Shown: positions 10,138-19,100, counted from the stretch's first letter. The stretch is DNA of 64,000 bases from Planctomycetota bacterium (GCA_965223845.1 CBDCXR010000004.1:3936001-4000000), one strand, 5' to 3'. Notes: generated by a model not told the origin, from the letters alone. A program made the numbers and translations.

Positions 10138-12480
10138 TCACTCCCAGCAGACGTGCGGATCGAAGGTCGGATCTTGACCCGCGGCCACCGGGCCCGGTGC
10201 CGGCGGCTCGTCACCGTCGGCGAAGAGCCAGAGGAGGGAGTGGACCGGATCCGATACGTCCACCGAACCGTCGTCGTTCGAATCGAGCCGATCGAGGCAG
10301 CGAAGGCCGAGCGGCCCGCCGCCGCGCGAGAAGAGCCCGTTCAAGGTGTTGATCGCGTCGGCGACGTCGACTCCACCGTCGAGGTTCGAATCGCCGCGAC
10401 GGAACGGTCGCGGCGGAGCGAAGCGGGCCATCTCGACCCAGTCTTCGAGCTCGCCGAGGCCGACCGTGCAGCGCGCGGTGAAATCGAGGACGAAGAGGTC
10501 GCACTCCTCGGCCGTCCCGCCCTGGGCGAGACAAATCGCGCGGAGGTCCGCACCGCGCTCGGCGCAGAGGGCGTCGGCGGGCAGCAGCCCGACGTCGAGA
10601 CCTCCGGCCATTCCGTCCCCGTCGCCGCCGTCTCCACCATCGTCGCCATCGTCGTCGCAAACCGCGCCGCAGCGCGCGAGGAAACCGTCGACGAGAGCCG
10701 CGCAGTCCTCCTCGCTCCCACCGCGCGAAGCGCAGGCGTCGGCGAGGCGAGCGGCCGCGGCTTCGCAGCGGTCGACGCACGGAGGCGGCGCGGGCGGCTC
10801 ACCGTCACAAGCGGACGAGCAGCCTTCGAGAATCCGATTCCCGAGCTCGGCGCACTCCTCCTCGGAACCGCCGGACTCGGCGCAGCGCGCCATCGCCTCG
10901 CGGGCGATTTGCGCACATCGCTCTTCGCAGGGAAGAGGATCCTCGCCGGCACAGCGAGCGAGGCACACGTCGAGGAATGCGTCAGCCTTGGCGCGACACT
11001 CTTCGGCGTCGCCACCATCGTCCACGCAGGAAGCGAACATGCGCTCCGAGACGTCGCCGCAGCGATCGTCGCAGCTCGGCGGTTGGGGCGGCTCGGGTCG
11101 CTCACAAGCGGCCGCGCACTCCTCAGCGAACTCGGCGGCCTTCGCATCGCATTCGCCCGGATCACCGCCGTCGGCGAGACAGGCCTCACGTACCGCGTCG
11201 GCGCGCCGCGCGCAGCGATCTTCGCAGGTCGGCGGCATCGGCGGCGGCTCTGCGCAGCCTCGGTTGCACGCGGCGAGGAACTTCGCGATGCGCGCTTCGC
11301 ACTCTTCCTCGCTCAACCCGAGTGCACTGCAGAGCCGACCGAGAGCCGGCACTGCGCGATCGCAGCGACTCCCGCAGTCCGGTGGGAACGAACGACGGCA
11401 CTGCCGCACGCACTCGTCGCGAAGAGCGCGCCCTTCGACCTCACAGACCTCAGCTTCTCCGCCGTCCGCGATGCACTGCTCGACCGCGTCGGCCGCGAGA
11501 TCGCTGCATTCGCGTCCGCACGAGGGAGGCGCCGGCGGTCCGTCGCACCGCCCGAGGCAAGCCTCGAGTGCGGTGTCGGCTCGTGCCGCGCACTCTTCCG
11601 CGTCTCCGCCGGCGTCCATGCATGCGGTCACGATGTGATCCCGCACCCTGGCGCAGCGGTCTTCGCAAGTCGGCGGCTCGGGACGATCGCGATCCCCACG
11701 ATCATCGCAAGCGTCGAGACAGCCGCGCAGCGCTTCCTCGGCCGCCGCGGCGCATTCCGCCGGATCACCGCCCGCCTCGAGACACTCGGCCAGACCGGCC
11801 TTGCTCTCCTGACCGCAGAGACCCGCGCACGACGGCGCGTGGAGCCCCTCGCAACCGCGGTGGCAGCTCTCGCGGACTCGCGCTGCGATCGCCTCGCACT
11901 CTTCACCATCGCGTCCGGTGAGCTCGCAAGCGGCCGCGACTGCTGCCGCCGCGCGGTCACAACGATCCTCACACGAGGGTGGAGTCCCGACGCATTCAGC
12001 GAGACACATCTCGAGGTGCGCCGCCGCGTTCGCTTCGCACTCGGCCGGATCGCCGCCTTCGCCCACGCAGGCTTCGCGCATCGCAGCCGCATTCGCGGCG
12101 CACGTCGACGGACAGTCCGGTGGAATCGGTCGATCGCAGAACGCGAGGCACGCGCCCACGGCCTCCTCGACCTTCGCGGCGCATTCTTCTTCCGTGCCGC
12201 CGAGACGCTCGCACATCGTCGCGACGCGCTCGCCGAGCGCTTCGCAAGTCGACGCGCAGTGGACTCCCGGATCGACCGGGTCACCCCCGTCGCACCGCTC
12301 GCGCAGGGCATCGGCCGCCGCGGCACATTCTTCCGGCGTTCCGCCGCGGCGCTCACACTGCGCCTGGAGCGCGTCGGCTGCCTCGTCGCAGTCGATCACG
12401 AACTGGGCCTCGAGCGCGGTCGCGCTGAAGCCAACAATCAAGACTGCACTGCAGAGCGCAGCAGGGATCGAGATTCTCAT
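10138..12480 (-). CDS. Secreted cysteine-rich repeat protein with C-terminal dockerin-like domain
   Basis: Start reassigned to ATG 12480 (GAGGAGG RBS; signal peptide MRISIPAALCSAVLIVGFSATALEA). Contains 11 Cx3Cx10Cx9Cx10Cx3C repeats and FRRGDSNLDGGVDVAD...DSNDDGSVDVSD. Confidence 0.85.
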   Translation of the reverse strand: MRISIPAALCSAVLIVGFSATALEAQFVIDCDEAADALQAQCERRGGTPEECAAAADALRERCDGGDPVDPGVHCASTCEALGERVATMCERLGGTEEECAAKVEEAVGACLAFCDRPIPPDCPSTCAANAAAMREACVGEGGDPAECEANAAAHLEMCLAECVGTPPSCEDRCDRAAAAVAAACELTGRDGEECEAIAARVRESCHRGCEGLHAPSCAGLCGQESKAGLAECLEAGGDPAECAAAAEEALRGCLDACDDRGDRDRPEPPTCEDRCARVRDHIVTACMDAGGDAEECAARADTALEACLGRCDGPPAPPSCGRECSDLAADAVEQCIADGGEAEVCEVEGRALRDECVRQCRRSFPPDCGSRCDRAVPALGRLCSALGLSEEECEARIAKFLAACNRGCAEPPPMPPTCEDRCARRADAVREACLADGGDPGECDAKAAEFAEECAAACERPEPPQPPSCDDRCGDVSERMFASCVDDGGDAEECRAKADAFLDVCLARCAGEDPLPCEERCAQIAREAMARCAESGGSEEECAELGNRILEGCSSACDGEPPAPPPCVDRCEAAAARLADACASRGGSEEDCAALVDGFLARCGAVCDDDGDDGGDGGDGDGMAGGLDVGLLPADALCAERGADLRAICLAQGGTAEECDLFVLDFTARCTVGLGELEDWVEMARFAPPRPFRRGDSNLDGGVDVADAINTLNGLFSRGGGPLGLRCLDRLDSNDDGSVDVSDPVHSLLWLFADGDEPPAPGPVAAGQDPTFDPHVCWE

Positions 12481-12608
12481 GGATTCCTCCTCGGGTCGTT
12501 CCCGACGGTTCATTCCGTTCGCTTTGTGCTCGCTCGTCGTACGCCCCGGCGCGCCTGGGCGCGCCGTCAATCGACGCCGCTGGGACGTCATCACCCACAT
12601 ACTCTTGT

Positions 12609-12624
12609 AGCAAACACGAGACCA
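12609..12624 (-). promoter_or_regulatory. Possible sigma-54 (-24/-12) promoter for the Cys-repeat gene
   Basis: Minus strand TGGTCTCGTGTTTGCT has exact GG-N10-GC spacing and lies about 130 bp upstream of ATG 12480. It deviates from the CACG consensus. Confidence 0.35.
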
Positions 12625-12791
12625 CGGCGTCGTTTCCCGTCGCAACGTCAATGGTATCAGGAAGTTCGATTCCGGCGATCCCGTCGCAGCGTCAGGCTGT
12701 CTTTACACTGCGTTTCTCGCTCCTTGAAGAGATTGTTCCCGGAGCGAAACCGAACAGACTCCGAACGAGCGGCTCCCGACTGAGACGCCGT

Positions 12792-13136
12792 TCAGTCGTC
12801 GTCGCGGCCCGACGTCCGCGTCAAGTTGAGGCCGGCGATCCGCACCACGCGCCGCTTCGCGACTTCGAGCGCGTAAAACTCGAGCACTTTGTGATGCTGG
12901 CGCGGCGAAAACCGGTACGGGCGCGGATGGCGAACGATGCCGAACTCGATGCGTTCAACGGTGTCGCCCTCGCCGAGCTCCCAGCCCTGGACTACGCAGC
13001 GCGGAGCGTGTCGGGGCTTGAGGGATGTGCCCGCGAGCGACTTCGGATCGCGGAGCGCCTCGTCGAGCGTGCGAACGACGAGACGTTCGACCTCTCGTCT
13101 CCGGCGTCGTTTCGCCAGCCAACTCCGCAATCCCAT
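12792..13136 (-). CDS. Hypothetical protein (114 aa)
   Basis: Fills the gap between same-strand genes with protein-like composition; no family recognised. Confidence 0.6.
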   Translation of the reverse strand: MGLRSWLAKRRRRREVERLVVRTLDEALRDPKSLAGTSLKPRHAPRCVVQGWELGEGDTVERIEFGIVRHPRPYRFSPRQHHKVLEFYALEVAKRRVVRIAGLNLTRTSGRDDD

Positions 13137-13183
13137 CGCTCGGCTACGCTCGTTCGGGGAGAGATGAGGACTCTCCCCTCTTC

Positions 13184-13217
13184 AAAAGAAAAGGGCGGAG
13201 GCCAACGCCTCCGCCCT
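13184..13217 (-). terminator. Intrinsic terminator after the putative selenoprotein gene
   Basis: Perfect 11-bp stem AGGGCGGAGGC-caac-GCCTCCGCCCT followed on the minus strand by TTTCTTTT. Confidence 0.8.
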
Positions 13218-13270
13218 CGCTTGTCAACCGGCCGCAGCTCCGCGCCTCGTTGCGCGAAGGCGGACGACGG

Positions 13271-14167
13271 TCAGTCGCCCTTCTGGGGCTCGTCTTTTTT
13301 CTTCTTCTTGTATCCGCGAGCGTGCTCGGGCACGCCGTAGTTGTACTTGTACTGCTTGATCCCCATGTCGATGAACTTCGCCACATCGAAGGATTCAAAC
13401 GGTGCGAACGGTTGCTCGGCGAGCCGCTCGTGGAGGACTTGGTCCGCGGTCTTGAGCGACCCCGTGACAAAGCCTTTCTCGCGCTTGAAGTCGCTCTCTT
13501 TCCGCTTCGCGATATTGCTGTAATCGAATCCCTGCAGCTTGCTCACGCGACTCATGGACTCCGCGTTCACGTACGCCTGCTGGAGATGGAAGTCGAGGAA
13601 CTTCTCGTTCTTCTCCGCGCGCGAAAACTTCTTCGAGACGTAGAGCCTCCCAAGCTTCACGGCGAGCTTGGCCTCCTCGAGGAAGTGAACCGGATTCCAG
13701 TAGCCCGGGAGCGCGTTGAGGATGCGTCCGTCCGGCGTCATGAAGAACATCTGGACGTTGTGATGTCCCGACGAGTTGTTGACGTTCATCGCCGGGTAAT
13801 GCGGGAGGTGTTTGTTCGACTTTCCCGCGTACGGGAGCTTCCCCTCGATGTTCGTCCAGCCGCGGACGAAATACTTATCGAGGAGTGCGTCGACCTTTTC
13901 GTGAGAGAGCGTCACGGCCCTCAGGGAGTGCCCGGCGCTTCACAAGCCGCCGCCGAGCTCACCGACGATCTGAAGCCAGAAAATCAGCTTCTTCTCGTCC
14001 GTCGCTCGCTTCTTGAGGGCGTCGAGATCTTTCTGCCACGCCTCCTTCTCGACGACGATCGTCGTCCGCTTGGAGACGTCGCTGCCGCTGACGTGGCGTT
14101 CCACGTTTTGCGCCGCGAGCGTTCCCCCGGAGAGGACGAGCGCGGACATCAGCGCGAGAGTCTTCAT
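13271..14167 (-). CDS. Putative exported selenoprotein (thioredoxin-like, SelN-like; in-frame TGA at 13940-13942), 298 aa
   Basis: ORFs 13940..14167 and 13271..13915 are in the same frame, joined by TGA plus 8 sense codons: ...FWLQIVGELGGGL*SAGHSLRAVTLSHEKVDALLDKYFVRGW. Signal peptide, GGAG RBS and a single downstream terminator. Confidence 0.75.
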
Positions 14168-14247
14168 AAGTTGGGCTCCACTGGTCAGATCCGCAAGCGG
14201 CGACCGAGGGCGTCCGCAGTGCGAAAGATTCCCATCCGGATCCTCTC

Positions 14248-14276
14248 AGCCTAAGGGAGAGAACTGCCCACTCCAA
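14248..14276 (-). promoter_or_regulatory. Possible sigma-70-type promoter
   Basis: TTGGAG-N17-TAGGCT on the minus strand, about 80 bp upstream of ATG 14167. Confidence 0.35.
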
Positions 14277-14290
14277 CGACGATCGCGGGC

Positions 14291-15919
14291 TCAGCGGGCG
14301 TTTTCCTCTGCCCACCACGCCTTCCAATCGCTCGCTTTTTCCCCTAAGTCTTTGCCGGCGATAGCGATAAGGGCCTGGTGAACCGCGTTCCTCAGTCGCC
14401 CTTCGGAGACCCCGAGACGCTGGATGAGAGCGGGGACCGCGAGACGGCTCCGGCTCGTTTCGAACGCGGCGGCGAGCGCGAGCCGCTGGTCGACGTCCCT
14501 ATCGGAGGAAAACCGGAGGACGAGTTGGCGCACCGCATCCTCATCGCGGAACTGGGCGATTCCGCCCGCCACCGCGGCGAGAAGTGCGACGAGGCGTTCG
14601 CGCTGCCTTTCCTTGATCTCGACCTTCTTCTCCGAGAGCTCGAGGTTCCGCTGCAGCTTCTCGATCTCGGGGCTCGGTGCGTAGCGCGATCCTTCGCGCT
14701 TGCTCGATCCCTCTCCGTTTTCCCCGCCGCGCAGCTTGTCGGCCTGAGCGACGAGCGTCTTCGCTCGGCGCTTGAGGAAAGCGACGGTGCGATCGAGGTC
14801 GACGAGGAGATCGCGACCGTGGCGATGGACATCGAGCAGTCCGTCGGCCGCGCGCTTTCCGCGCGAGCCGCTCAGTTGCGCAAGCTCGGGCTCGAGCGAC
14901 TCCGGGACGGCTTCCGGGGAAGCGTAGTCGTCGATCTTCTCCGAGAGCGCGGCGACGAGATCGCGCACTTCGCTCGCCGACAGCACGGGCCCCGGCGTCT
15001 TGCGCTGAACCATCGCGGTCGCTGCGTCGTCGTCCGGAGCGCGAGAATCGGCGCTGCTCACGCCCGGGACGATCGTCGTCGTCGCCCGCCTCTCGGCCGA
15101 GCTCCGTGCGGCCGCGAGCTCTTCGGCGAGCTCTTCCCGCTCGACGTGCGCGGCCGTGAGGCTCGCCTTCATCTCATCGAGCTGCGCGCGAATTGTTTCG
15201 ATCTCGCCTTCACGGCCGGCCTCGAGCGTCTGCCGGAGAAGTGCGAGCTCATTTTGATACTTTCGCTCGAGATCTCGAAGCGAGCGCTCGCGTTCCTGAA
15301 GCTTGCCCTGGAGCGCCGCGAAGCGCGCTTCGTCGTTGAGCGCTCGCCTCTCGGCTTCGAGTTGACGTGCCGACTCCGGCGAGAGCGACGACGCAGAAGA
15401 GCGGTCCTCCGTCAGACCGGGGTCGCGATTCCGCGAGACGATCGACCAGGCGATGAGGCCGACGACGGTCACGGCTCCCGCGACGACTCCGATCGTCGCG
15501 AGCGCCCCCGAAGACTCCGAACTCACCCGACTGCCCGCGCGTCTCGGGGAACGCCCGGCGGCGGCTCTCGCGCTCGCTCCCCCCGCCTTGAACCGAAACT
15601 GGAGTCGCCCGAACCGGACGACGTCGCCGTCGCGAAGACGCTGGCCCTCGGAACGCGCGCCGTTGACGCGCGTCGGATTGTGGCTGTCCCCCGCCTCCAC
15701 CACGACCACGTTGCCGTCGCGAATGAGCACGCAATGCCGGCGCGAGACGGTCGTGTCGGCGAGCTCGAGGTCGCACTCCGGAGACCGACCGACGACGGTT
15801 CTCCCCTCGGTGAGAACGTGAACGAGCTCCTCGTTCCCGTCTTCGTCTCCGCTGATCAGCACGAGACGCGGCTCTTGGCTGGACATGAAGCGAACCTCGG
15901 AGTCGGATCTCTTCCCCAT
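14291..15919 (-). CDS. FHA domain, single TM, coiled-coil and HEAT-repeat protein
   Basis: VGRSPECDLELADTTVSRRHC...NPTRVNG (FHA); TM IGVVAGAVTVVGLIAW; heptad region; AVPALIQRL...ALIAIAGKDLG..DWKAWW terminus. Confidence 0.8.
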   Translation of the reverse strand: MGKRSDSEVRFMSSQEPRLVLISGDEDGNEELVHVLTEGRTVVGRSPECDLELADTTVSRRHCVLIRDGNVVVVEAGDSHNPTRVNGARSEGQRLRDGDVVRFGRLQFRFKAGGASARAAAGRSPRRAGSRVSSESSGALATIGVVAGAVTVVGLIAWSIVSRNRDPGLTEDRSSASSLSPESARQLEAERRALNDEARFAALQGKLQERERSLRDLERKYQNELALLRQTLEAGREGEIETIRAQLDEMKASLTAAHVEREELAEELAAARSSAERRATTTIVPGVSSADSRAPDDDAATAMVQRKTPGPVLSASEVRDLVAALSEKIDDYASPEAVPESLEPELAQLSGSRGKRAADGLLDVHRHGRDLLVDLDRTVAFLKRRAKTLVAQADKLRGGENGEGSSKREGSRYAPSPEIEKLQRNLELSEKKVEIKERQRERLVALLAAVAGGIAQFRDEDAVRQLVLRFSSDRDVDQRLALAAAFETSRSRLAVPALIQRLGVSEGRLRNAVHQALIAIAGKDLGEKASDWKAWWAEENAR

Positions 15920-16157
15920 CTCTTCGTCGCCGCGACGGATCGCGGGCTACGTTCGCCTGAGTCGATGGCCAGTCTAGCCTAACCTCTTCGGGGACGATCG
16001 CCAACTCGCCGCCGGTCGCCGGGGGGCGAGACCCACCGGAATCGCGCCGCCGCGCTGGGCGCGAGAACGCGCGTTGCGCTAGGATCGATCGCGTTCTGTC
16101 ACTCTTCGATGGTGTAAGTCTCCTTCAGTTGTGGTCCCCGTCGGAGGAAGTACGACC

Positions 16158-19100
16158 ATGTTTCGCGCCGGAGTTTCGTTCTTAGCATTTTCGTGCGGGT
16201 TCGCGTCGATCGTCCTCGCTTGCGGCACCCTGCGGGCGGGCTCGGGGAAGATCCACCCCGATGGAACGATGGATTTCGTCATCAACTATCGTTTCGTACC
16301 GACACCGGCCGATCTGACTCGACTGAAAGACGCTCTCCGCGGTGCGGCGGACATCATTTGCGATGCGACCGACGGAGAGATTCGCTTCGGCGAGATTCGG
16401 ATCACGGGAGGCGCCGTAGCGGAGGACGAAGCGGATATTTGGATTCTGCCGCAGAACGGACGGTCCGGTGTCACCACTTACTCCGACGGAAGCGGCCTCG
16501 GCCGGAACGGCGCGCACATTCGCCTCCACAACGACGATGTCGATGCGGGCATCATCGCACACGAGATCGGGCATCACGCGTTCGGCCTCGGTGAGCAATA
16601 CGACGAACAGCGCCGCTTCGGCGGAGCGTGCGGCATCGGGCGCGGCTTCGAGCTAACGGCGATCGACGACCGCAACAACTCGATCATGCAGCAATCCCCG
16701 GGAGCGTCCGAACTCTCGGTTGCCGCCAACCACGACCTCGTCCGCGGCGACAACGTCGTCTGTCCGGCCATCGTCGAAACTTCGATGATCGAGATCGACG
16801 CTCGACTGAATAGTTCGGCGACCATCGTCGCCTTTGATTCAACAGATTTCGACACGGCGAGGGCGACGAGCGACATCGTCGGCGAAGTTGAAGTCGTCGA
16901 TTCCATCGGAGCCGCGAACGAGCATGCGGTTCTCTTCTTTTTCGAACGTACGGGCTCGTCCGCTTGGTCGCTTCACGTCGGGATCGACGACGGCGACATC
17001 ACCGGTGGAACCGCCGGGGATCTGCGCATTCTGGCGACGATTGGCCTCACCTTCGACGCGACCGGAGCACTCGCGGGGATATTGCCCGCGTCGCCAACGT
17101 TCAAGATCGAAAACCTCACGAACGGAGCGGCGGACCTCGAGATCGCCCTCGACCTCGGGACACTCGGCGCGATGGACGGAGTGCGGGAAGGTGCGGGGAC
17201 GTCGGCGGTCCTGATGTCAGCAGGGGACGGATTTCCTCTTTGCTCGGACTCCGATTGCGCCCAGCGTTGGCACTCGACGAGAACACGCTTCGAGACGAGT
17301 GACCAAACGCTCTTTCAGGGCGACTCCGACTGGGAAACGTTGGTTCGCAACTATCCCTTCGTGACTCCTCCGACCGGCCTTCCTATCGCGGCGATGCCGG
17401 GGAACTGCCGCGAGAAGCTCTCCTTCGTGGAGGAAGTCGAGGGCTCCGACCAGGTGATGCTCTTCATCGATCGCTCCGGAAGCATGGACACTCCCGTCGA
17501 GAGCGGTTCCGATTCGACCCGGCTCGATTTCGCGCAGGCGGCCGCGCGAGCTTTCGTCGATCTTCAGCGAGGGCGAGGCACGGTCGTCGGACTCGTCTCG
17601 TTCGAAGAGTCGCCGCGACTCGACCGCGGACTCGGCGTTCTCAACGACACAGAAATCGAACCCTTGAAGACGACGATCAGCAATCTCGCCGCGGGAGGAA
17701 ACACCGGGATCGGTACGGCGCTGAACGCCGCGACGTTCGAGTTTCAACGCGTTGCCGCGGACGGCCGCATTCGGACTGCGTTCCTCCTCTCCGACGGCGA
17801 GAACAACCGCGGCGAGGATCCGGACGACGCCGCGGAGCGGCTTCGCGCGGAAGGCGTCCGGATCTTCACGGTTCCCGTCGGCTCCGGTGCCGATCGCGAC
17901 CTGCTCGAAGACATCGCCGCCGAGAGCGCCGGCGAAATGCTCGACGCACCCACTGGCGACGAGCTGCCCGCGATCTACTTCGAGCTCGCCGCTCGCATTC
18001 TGGGTCACTCGCTCGTCCTCCCTCGAACCGCGTCGGCAGTGGGCGACGGAGGAGACGGCGAGCCGCCGCGGAGCGAGGGCTTCGAGTTCCCGGTCGAGAT
18101 CGGAACGACGCATCTCAACGTGATCCTCTCGACCCGCAACTCACTCCTCGCGACGTGGACCCCCGAGTTCGAGCTCGTCGGCCCCGGGGGCGAGAGCATC
18201 CGGGAGCACGACACGGAGTTCGTAACGACCGACCCCTACTATCGGCTCATTCGTATTCCCGACCCGACTCCGGGAACGTGGGCTCTCATCGTCTCGAGCA
18301 GTGGCGGAGTGAATCAATTGTCCTTCGTCGCGGCCCACGCCGAAAACCCCGCACCGGATCTCTTCGTGAGCGCGGTACCCCGTCGAGCGACCGCCGCGGA
18401 CACGGTTTCGATCTCGGCGGCGGCGGCGTACGTCGCCGATCTCGATGACACGGTGATCTACGAGGGCTGGGTGAGGCGACCGGACGAGAGCGTCGTTCCG
18501 CTGGTGTTCTCGCGACACCCGGTCTCGGGCACTCTGGAAGCACCTTTCAACGCCTACGTCGGACGGGGAACGTACGACGTGATCGTCACCGCGCTCGCCG
18601 GCCCGCGGACGCACGTCGCGCCCGGCGAGCCGATTTTTCCCGGCCCGGCGGTACCCGATATCCACGTCGAGCCGTTCGCTCGCGCCGCGAGGACGAGCTT
18701 CTTTCTCGACGTAAGCACGTTTCCCCCGTGCCGGAGTCCCGATTGCGACGGCGACGGGATCCCGAACGAAACCGAGACCGAGGACGATCGAGACGGCGAT
18801 GGCCTCCCGAATGATCGCGACGACGACGCCGACGGCGACGACGTTCCCGACGTCCACGAGGGTGACGTCGACTCGGACGGCGACGGCATTCCCGACTACC
18901 TCGATCCCGACTCCGACAACGACGGAATCCCCGACGGCGAAGATCCGACGCGCACTCAGCCCGATCGAAAGTTCCGGCGGGCGGATGCGAACACCGACGG
19001 ATCGCTCAACATCGCGGATCCCATCTTCACCCTGAACGCTCTGTTCCAGGCCGCAGCGCCTCCGCTTCCTTGCGACGACGCCGCGGACGCGAACGACGAC

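Follow-up and report, generated by a model that had tools for sequence, protein, structure and literature searches.

Organization of the locus

The window, i.e., the whole stretch of 64,000 nucleotides from a planctomycete genome that was analyzed, contains on its minus strand one continuous reading frame at 13271..14167 (-). It consists of 298 codons and a terminal TGA stop (13271-13273) and is treated here as the whole gene of a putative selenoprotein. An additional in-frame TGA at 13940-13942 (-) corresponds to codon 76, and its read-through results in a protein of 298 residues with selenocysteine (Sec, U) at position 76. Gene prediction yields two pieces: an open reading frame (ORF) of 75 aa, which together with its stop covers 14167..13940 (-), and one of 214 aa (13915..13271, -). 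A preceding sequence-only reading of this DNA had stated that both ORFs share one frame and that ORF callers split the gene. Both statements hold, as the TGA at 13940-13942 is the sole separator between the ORFs and as public annotation lists the two halves separately.

A GGAG that resembles a Shine-Dalgarno sequence by eye appears 8 nt before the ATG at 14167 (14176..14179, -). Upstream of the GTG which opens the 214-aa ORF only a GAGGG at a distance of 3 nt could be seen by eye, so that this GTG has no well-spaced ribosome binding site, as had been noticed before. The unit had also been described as being bracketed by a putative promoter and a strong terminator. The latter is present as an intrinsic-terminator-like 12-bp hairpin followed by a T run (13191..13218, -), about 50 nt past the stop. 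The promoter found no support, as a scan of positions 13000-16300 yielded no sigma-70-type promoter-like site.

By inspection, residues 1 to approximately 20 (14108..14167, -) resemble an N-terminal signal peptide, with an initial MK, a hydrophobic stretch and L-A-A before a Q. Sequence inspection of the N-terminus revealed no lipobox Cys. A hydrophobic N-terminus is found in all aligned relatives, and residues 1-20 have low pLDDT values in the AlphaFold2 model described below. The signal peptide of the window protein looks cleavable, and from it we infer export of the protein.

The product of the gene directly upstream (14291..15919, -) combines an FHA domain with one predicted membrane span and a long coiled-coil or helical C-terminal part. 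By eye, this protein has no Cys past the membrane span. A homologous FHA gene lies upstream in 11 loci, including the window and Ca. Uabimicrobium, and these are all loci of the L-U subfamily (Leu directly before Sec) for which upstream sequence exists; locus L026, which begins at a contig end, was left out of this count. Gene order suggests that the FHA protein and the putative selenoprotein may form a functional pair. Outside of the subfamily of the window protein, no conserved neighbour was common to more than three loci. The 837-aa ORF just downstream (10138-12651, -) encodes many Cys-rich repeats with approximately four Cys each and a G-G-[DT]-x-x-E-C core, and its C-terminal end has a dockerin/EF-hand-like D-x-N-x-D-G segment. 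At E <= 0.01 the ORF had no match in Pfam.

Conservation of the in-frame TGA

A scan of one genome per species identified 25 related loci. They belong to Planctomycetota, with locus L024 on the chromosome of Ca. Uabimicrobium amorphum among them, to Obscuribacterales/Melainabacteria, which are cyanobacterial relatives that do not photosynthesize, and to Armatimonadota. In 25/25 of these loci, and therefore in three phyla, TGA occupies the identical column with conservation on both sides, which indicates more than a chance occurrence. The surrounding motif reads G-x-[LT]-U-S-A-G-x-S-L-R-[AD]-V-[TS]-L-S, and the strand preceding it is kept in the same frame. Locus L042 (masked bases, frame break) was excluded from later counts, and the alignment A3 (33 rows) was built without L029, which is truncated where its contig stops, and L040, which is nearly identical to L038.

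In a sample of 401 genomes of the phylum, a match was found in 86 genomes (E <= 1e-10), and in 72 of these 86 the match contains an in-frame TGA. The residue-by-residue check of the TGA column covers the 25 loci plus nine further loci, and thereby a part of the 72 genomes. These nine come from 18 weaker genomic matches which were fetched: all nine TGA-bearing matches have the TGA at the Sec column, and all nine non-TGA matches have Cys there; in both groups, two matches fell on this column once the automatic alignment was shifted by one residue. Several genomes of the phylum hold four to five TGA-bearing paralogues of the superfamily.

Protein databases reflect the split gene models. The near-length homologues in a collection of 5.8 billion proteins number 45; all of them are 197-250 aa long, and none covers more than 72% of the query. 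Twenty of the 45 were aligned, and all of these start at query residues 82-96, shortly past the TGA, and are conserved up to their first residue. An exhaustive search of representatives gave 263 matches at E <= 0.001. Among the 150 of these that were listed, 13 are N-terminal fragments whose match stops at residue 75, and 16 extend across residue 76, while nearly all others are C-terminal pieces starting past the TGA (P0178 starts inside a longer protein). The public names of the ten homologues that were checked are either 'hypothetical protein' or missing.

The 16 listed proteins that span the column have Cys in ten cases, Trp in two, Ser in one and Pro or Ala in three with degenerate motifs. 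The expectation that a search with the joined protein would reveal TGA or Cys at this position was therefore borne out, with TGA in 25/25 loci and Cys in 10/16 listed proteins and 9/9 fetched non-TGA matches. Trp or other residues in homologues had been named beforehand as an argument against Sec. In part this is what was found, as two of the 16 proteins (2/16) carry Trp; these two entries are probably products of gene calling, and Cys is the residue in most of the 16. The Trp entries, P0054 and P0056, are full-length, and P0054 belongs to a 90% cluster together with fragments of 178-237 aa. It appears probable that in both the TGA was read as Trp by the gene caller.

The separate annotation of the two halves, which gene callers produce everywhere, would also be expected if the TGA were a true stop, i.e., if the locus comprised two genes, a pseudogene or a sequencing error. 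This is extremely improbable in view of a TGA that occupies one column in 25/25 loci of three phyla and is flanked on either side by sequence under purifying conservation. It is also at odds with the Cys forms, which are single full-length proteins, and with the missing spaced ribosome binding site at the supposed start GTG.

Selenocysteine machinery and co-occurrence

The genome of the window (7.93 Mb, 4 contigs) was searched for the machinery of Sec decoding, the presence of which the sequence-only reading had left to be checked. SelA (453 bits), SelB (320 bits; 352.7 with its C-terminal piece) and SelD (308 bits) were all found, together with a tRNA-Sec that scores 68.1 bits, above the Rfam cut-off, and that ARAGORN calls tRNA-SeC(tca). 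SelA is present in 304 of the 401 sampled genomes, and Sec-decoding genomes therefore make up a very high share of the Planctomycetota sample.

The TGA form and SelA occur together. Among the 72 genomes with the TGA form, 69 contain SelA, and the remaining three have a completeness of 67-84%. SelA is missing from five of the 14 genomes in which all matches are non-TGA forms; the completeness of these five is 91-100%. Four of them carry Cys forms with an S-C-A-N-S-R motif and the fifth, L060, has Cys in another context. All five tested TGA-form genomes of other lineages contain SelA. The co-occurrence counts are given without a statistic because related genomes are not independent.

These data also bear on the idea that translation continues past the UGA with Trp, Cys or some residue other than Sec inserted there, either by a near-cognate tRNA or after reassignment of the codon. 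The Trp at the column in P0054 and P0056 would fit with it. However, the gene of the window itself ends in TGA, which indicates that this codon is not reassigned in its genome, and the SelA, SelB and SelD genes are open without internal stops. Furthermore, the TGA forms track SelA and SelA-less genomes carry Cys forms, while the Trp entry P0054 clusters (90%) with fragments of 178-237 aa as if the TGA had been called as Trp. Read-through as an amino acid other than Sec is for these reasons considered very improbable.

A SECIS-like hairpin downstream of the UGA

A SECIS-like hairpin is located at 13905..13922 (-). It starts 18 nt past the UGA and consists of a 6-bp stem (GAGGGC/GCUCUC) and the loop CGUGAC, in which G is the second nucleotide and is followed by U; 23 nt lie between the UGA and the loop. 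The hairpin agrees in all four points with the consensus model of bacterial SECIS elements, which comprises four criteria (PMC13188914). It was found only through the comparison of loci, and its consensus in the alignment is GAGRGC CGUG[A/U/G]C GCUCUC. In three Obscuribacterales loci, the register is shifted to a stem of 5-6 bp with the loop CGUG.

In the 25-sequence alignment, 95.8% of the cells of the stem are paired, compared to 41-69% if the partners are slid by 1-3 columns, and none of 500 shuffles reaches this value. Local folding gives this hairpin as the minimum-energy structure in 25/25 loci, and the 45 nt past the UGA have a minimum free energy of <= -7.5 kcal/mol in 24/25. For the 71 nt around the UGA, however, the folding energy does not surpass that of shuffled sequences (z 0.16), and energy alone is therefore no proof of a SECIS element. 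RNAalifold gave only -2.08 kcal/mol for the hairpin, with a single covarying pair. Covariation is indeed thin: the one compensatory change, from A-U to C-G in L022, also changes a conserved Ser to Ala. A search against Rfam at a permissive E-value returned no family, just a chance match to RtT.

The codons within the hairpin are frozen, with GCC for Ala in 22/22 cases, GUG for Val in 25/25, ACG for Thr in 13/13 and AGR for Arg in 24/25, across genomes of 36-75% GC. In contrast, the invariant Gly at -7 and the invariant Ala at +2 relative to the UGA use all four codons. This freezing of codons is a stronger sign of a putative SECIS element than the covariation. The GUG at 13913-13915 (-), with which ORF callers start the 214-aa ORF, is the invariant Val codon (25/25) in the hairpin loop.

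Predicted fold and C-terminal extension

An AlphaFold2 model calculated on alignment A3 reached a pLDDT of 88.7 and a pTM of 0.85. According to AlphaFold2, Foldseek and VIA-align, residues ~33-177 (13637..14071, -) form a thioredoxin-like domain. The modelled elements are strand 1 (61-67), Sec76, helix 1 (77-86), strand 2 (100-106), a 30-residue loop, strands 138-143 and 148-154 and a helix at 159-177, followed by helices up to approximately residue 265. In this order of elements the TGA falls between strand 1 and helix 1 and splits one and the same domain. A continuous thioredoxin-like fold with the stop at its redox loop had been proposed from the sequence, and the model, with Sec76 at the start of helix 1, agrees with it.

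The nearest structures are DsbD-gamma, Thioredoxin_7 and DsbH domains, and Foldseek lists this group as well. The A3 profile matched 3ira with an E-value of 0.012, with U76 placed on the first Cys of the CxxC motif of 3ira. Individually compared to Pfam, 13 of the 33 members weakly match Thioredox_DsbH and 8 of 33 Thioredoxin_7 (best E-values 6.3e-5 and 3.9e-4). A natural Cys homologue fell into unnamed clusters in a protein-atlas comparison, with weak leads to Thioredoxin_7 and Thioredoxin_2 (scores <= 0.8). Searches of Pfam and NCBIfam with the joined window protein returned only noise, with no Pfam match at E <= 1 and none that reaches a gathering threshold, and a phmmer search of the PDB sequences gave nothing relevant.

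Residues 178-298 (13274..13636, -) constitute a C-terminal extension with the invariant motifs S..QGFD and K..DQ..HER. Modelled alone, these 121 residues gave a pLDDT of only 63.5 and a pTM of 0.33, while the same residues reach pLDDT values of 85-97 in the full model. The extension therefore probably packs on the thioredoxin domain and is, as far as the models indicate, no separate domain.

The fold provides further arguments against the TGA being a true stop. A thioredoxin fold needs both strand 1, which is encoded by the first ORF, and helix 1, which is encoded by the second, and the poor model of the C-terminal part on its own does not fit with an independent second protein.

Active site and proposed mechanism

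The active-site motif of the family is U-S-A-G without a second Cys, and the residue at U+3 is Gly in 22 of the 23 Sec-type rows. Neither a CxxC nor a CxxS active-site motif is present in the window protein. All 23 Sec-type rows share W44, K60, G69, U76, S77, A78 and R83 as well as N137, Q139, P154, G155, W157 and the HER triplet at 246-248, and H120 and H136 are each kept in 22/23. The position at which the cis-Pro would be expected appears to be Asn in the window protein.

The claim that the joined protein contains no Cys at all is correct for the window protein, but it does not describe the family, as Cys152 is present in 22/23 and Cys102 in 18/23 of the Sec-type rows. Likewise, a Sec that acts without a resolving Cys would apply to the window protein only, as 22 of 23 Sec-type relatives keep Cys152. 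In the window protein, residue 152 (codon 13712-13714, -) is Ala, and Cys102 is lost, too. Its nearest relatives likewise have no Cys152, and this clade therefore represents a natural 'Sec only' variant. Residue 132 is Ser in the window protein, Cys in 9/23 and Gly in 12/23 rows.

The conserved TGA, the Cys homologues, the Sec machinery, the SECIS-like hairpin and a fold to which both sides of the TGA contribute all point in the direction already taken by the sequence-only reading, i.e., to Sec in an exported thioredoxin-like protein. It is very likely that the UGA at codon 76 encodes Sec. With only slightly less assurance, the overall data are best explained by one gene for a secreted Sec-containing oxidoreductase with a predicted thioredoxin fold, belonging to a large and mostly Sec-using family.

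In the mechanism that we propose, SelB and Sec-tRNA(Sec) would read the UGA at codon 76 as Sec, steered by the hairpin 18 nt downstream with its loop G-U. Cleavage of the signal peptide would leave a thioredoxin-fold domain of the DsbD-gamma / Thioredoxin_7 / DsbH type. Sec76 would be positioned at the N-terminus of helix 1, which is the place of the attacking Cys in CxxC motifs. Judging from fold and position, the window protein may act as a single-selenol oxidoreductase of the cell envelope, in which Sec76 would attack an oxidised substrate, either a disulfide, a peroxide or a sulfoxide. An outside thiol would then resolve the selenenylsulfide or selenenic intermediate of the window protein, a step for which most relatives could use Cys152. 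The membrane-spanning FHA protein encoded just upstream may be the working partner.

The main functional rival to this proposal is that Sec, together with conserved His residues, serves as a ligand and not as a redox nucleophile. The protein would then be a binding protein or a chaperone for a metal, a metalloid or a client, similar to AGR2. The window protein indeed has no second Cys, His120 and His136 (22/23 each), His246 (23/23) and the invariant Asn137 and Gln139 could contribute to a binding site, and both AGR2 and AGR3 turned up in the sequence and structure comparisons. On the other hand, oxidoreductases make up most of the known selenoproteins in which a thioredoxin fold carries Sec at this site (PMC13188914). 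The presence of Cys152 in 22/23 Sec-type relatives also speaks against a ligand, and the only match to a metal-binding family was a weak one to Metal_resist in one of the 33 members (E 0.74). A ligand role is for these reasons regarded as unlikely, and an oxidoreductase remains the preferred assignment.

Possible relation to selenoprotein N

The sequence-only reading had pointed to a resemblance to eukaryotic selenoprotein N (SelN, SELENON/SEPN1). According to PMC12839072 and PMC8967691, SelN is a glycoprotein with type II topology in the ER membrane. It contains an EF-hand as well as a thioredoxin domain, and the Sec of the latter is part of an SCUG motif. Both Sec462 and Arg466, four residues further on, are mutated in disease (PMC12839072, PMC8967691). 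No structure of SelN had been solved as of 2020, as stated in PMC7474598. A specific kinship of the bacterial family with the thioredoxin-like domain of SelN, including a shared Sec chemistry, would add to the explanation given above; it is possible, if somewhat doubtful.

In favour of such a kinship, SelN has its Sec within a thioredoxin domain, in SCUG and with Arg at U+4 (PMC12839072, PMC8967691, PMC7474598). The C-U paralogues L050, L052 and L053 of the same phylum recall this arrangement, as they have a C-U dyad and two of them also Arg at both U+4 and U+7. The C-U dyad and the Arg at U+4 are thereby common to SelN and these paralogues, going by PMC12839072 and PMC8967691. P0220, a C-U paralogue, is homologous to the family (hhalign probability 98.9%, E 1.6e-17) with its Sec placed on U76, and its loop before the Sec is one residue longer. 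Within the family, Arg at U+7 is invariant (23/23). By the approximate SELENON string of the sequence-only reading, SelN would also have Arg at U+7. In both SelN and the family the residue is nearly always Sec, and in both the domain that carries it is thioredoxin-like and exposed to an oxidising environment, which is the ER lumen for SelN and, judging from the signal peptide, the periplasm for the family. Moreover, the structural matches include UAS domains and AGR proteins, which are eukaryotic representatives of this fold group.

Against a kinship stands that the window protein reads L-U-S, with no Cys before the Sec and with His at U+4. The SCUG motif (Cys, then Sec, Gly after) is not present in it, Pfam revealed no EF-hand, and instead of the type II membrane anchor of SelN there is a cleavable-looking signal peptide. 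Unlike SelN, it also has the additional C-terminal extension. Profile searches, which weigh little here as only word-sharing candidates were scored, returned no protein named SelN among proteins of 700-2000 aa, and only family fragments and no SelN among those of 144-699 aa (E <= 1). The name SelN occurred neither among the 150 listed representatives nor in the sequence and fold searches of the PDB. The full-text literature on selenoprotein N in connection with bacteria or the UAS domain likewise gave no description of the family. The more specific proposal that the planctomycete family and its C-U paralogues are the bacterial counterpart of the catalytic domain of SelN, in which a lone selenol would be enough for the chemistry, is a tentative one and put forward with a little more reserve.

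Significance

The family with its in-frame TGA occurs in 72 of the 401 sampled genomes of the phylum, i.e., in about one in six. As public annotation splits it into two 'hypothetical proteins', its recognition would correct many gene models and enlarge the known selenoproteome of a Sec-rich phylum. With the window protein, the chemistry of a Sec that has no partner Cys could be studied in a simple secreted protein. Should the kinship with SelN hold, the family would also provide a tractable, soluble and secreted 30-kDa bacterial model for a human selenoenzyme linked to muscle disease.

Comparison with known systems

A description of the family was not found in the full-text literature on selenoproteins, Planctomycetes and thioredoxin-like proteins. 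The most recent compilation (PMC13188914, May 2026) contains 119 prokaryotic selenoprotein families in its Table 1. No entry of this table corresponds to a U-x-x-G protein of the Thioredoxin_7 type, although the family might be listed in the supplements of the prediction papers cited there. None of the NCBIfam models named in Table 1 matches the window protein.

Several families of that Table 1, namely Sec-thioredoxin, DsbA/DsbG-like proteins, Trx7/PDZ (NF041199) and VPGUxxT (NF041383), share with the window family the decoding by SelB and SECIS, a Sec at the redox position of a thioredoxin fold and the existence of Cys homologues. As far as listed there, the thioredoxin-fold families mostly have UxxC, CxxU or UxxT motifs, whereas the window family has UxxG and no partner Cys in the motif.

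AGR2 and AGR3 (CxxS) resemble the family in being secreted and Thioredoxin_7-like and in having a lone nucleophile without a partner in the motif. They differ in being eukaryotic, in having Cys and not Sec and in the missing C-terminal extension, and the similarity is marginal (E ~0.3).

In terms of fold, active site at helix 1 and export, the window protein is most like DsbD-gamma, Thioredoxin_7 (PF13899) and Thioredox_DsbH (PF03190), which are represented by the structures 3f9u, 1vrs, 3ira, 7tkv and 2ju5. In contrast to their CxxC motif the window protein has U-x-x-G, and it has a 30-residue loop in place of helix 2, Asn at the expected cis-Pro position and an additional C-terminal extension of 120 residues that is predicted to pack on the domain. 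Next to these known systems, the gene in the window represents a predicted exported selenoprotein with a thioredoxin fold from a large, so far uncatalogued bacterial family.
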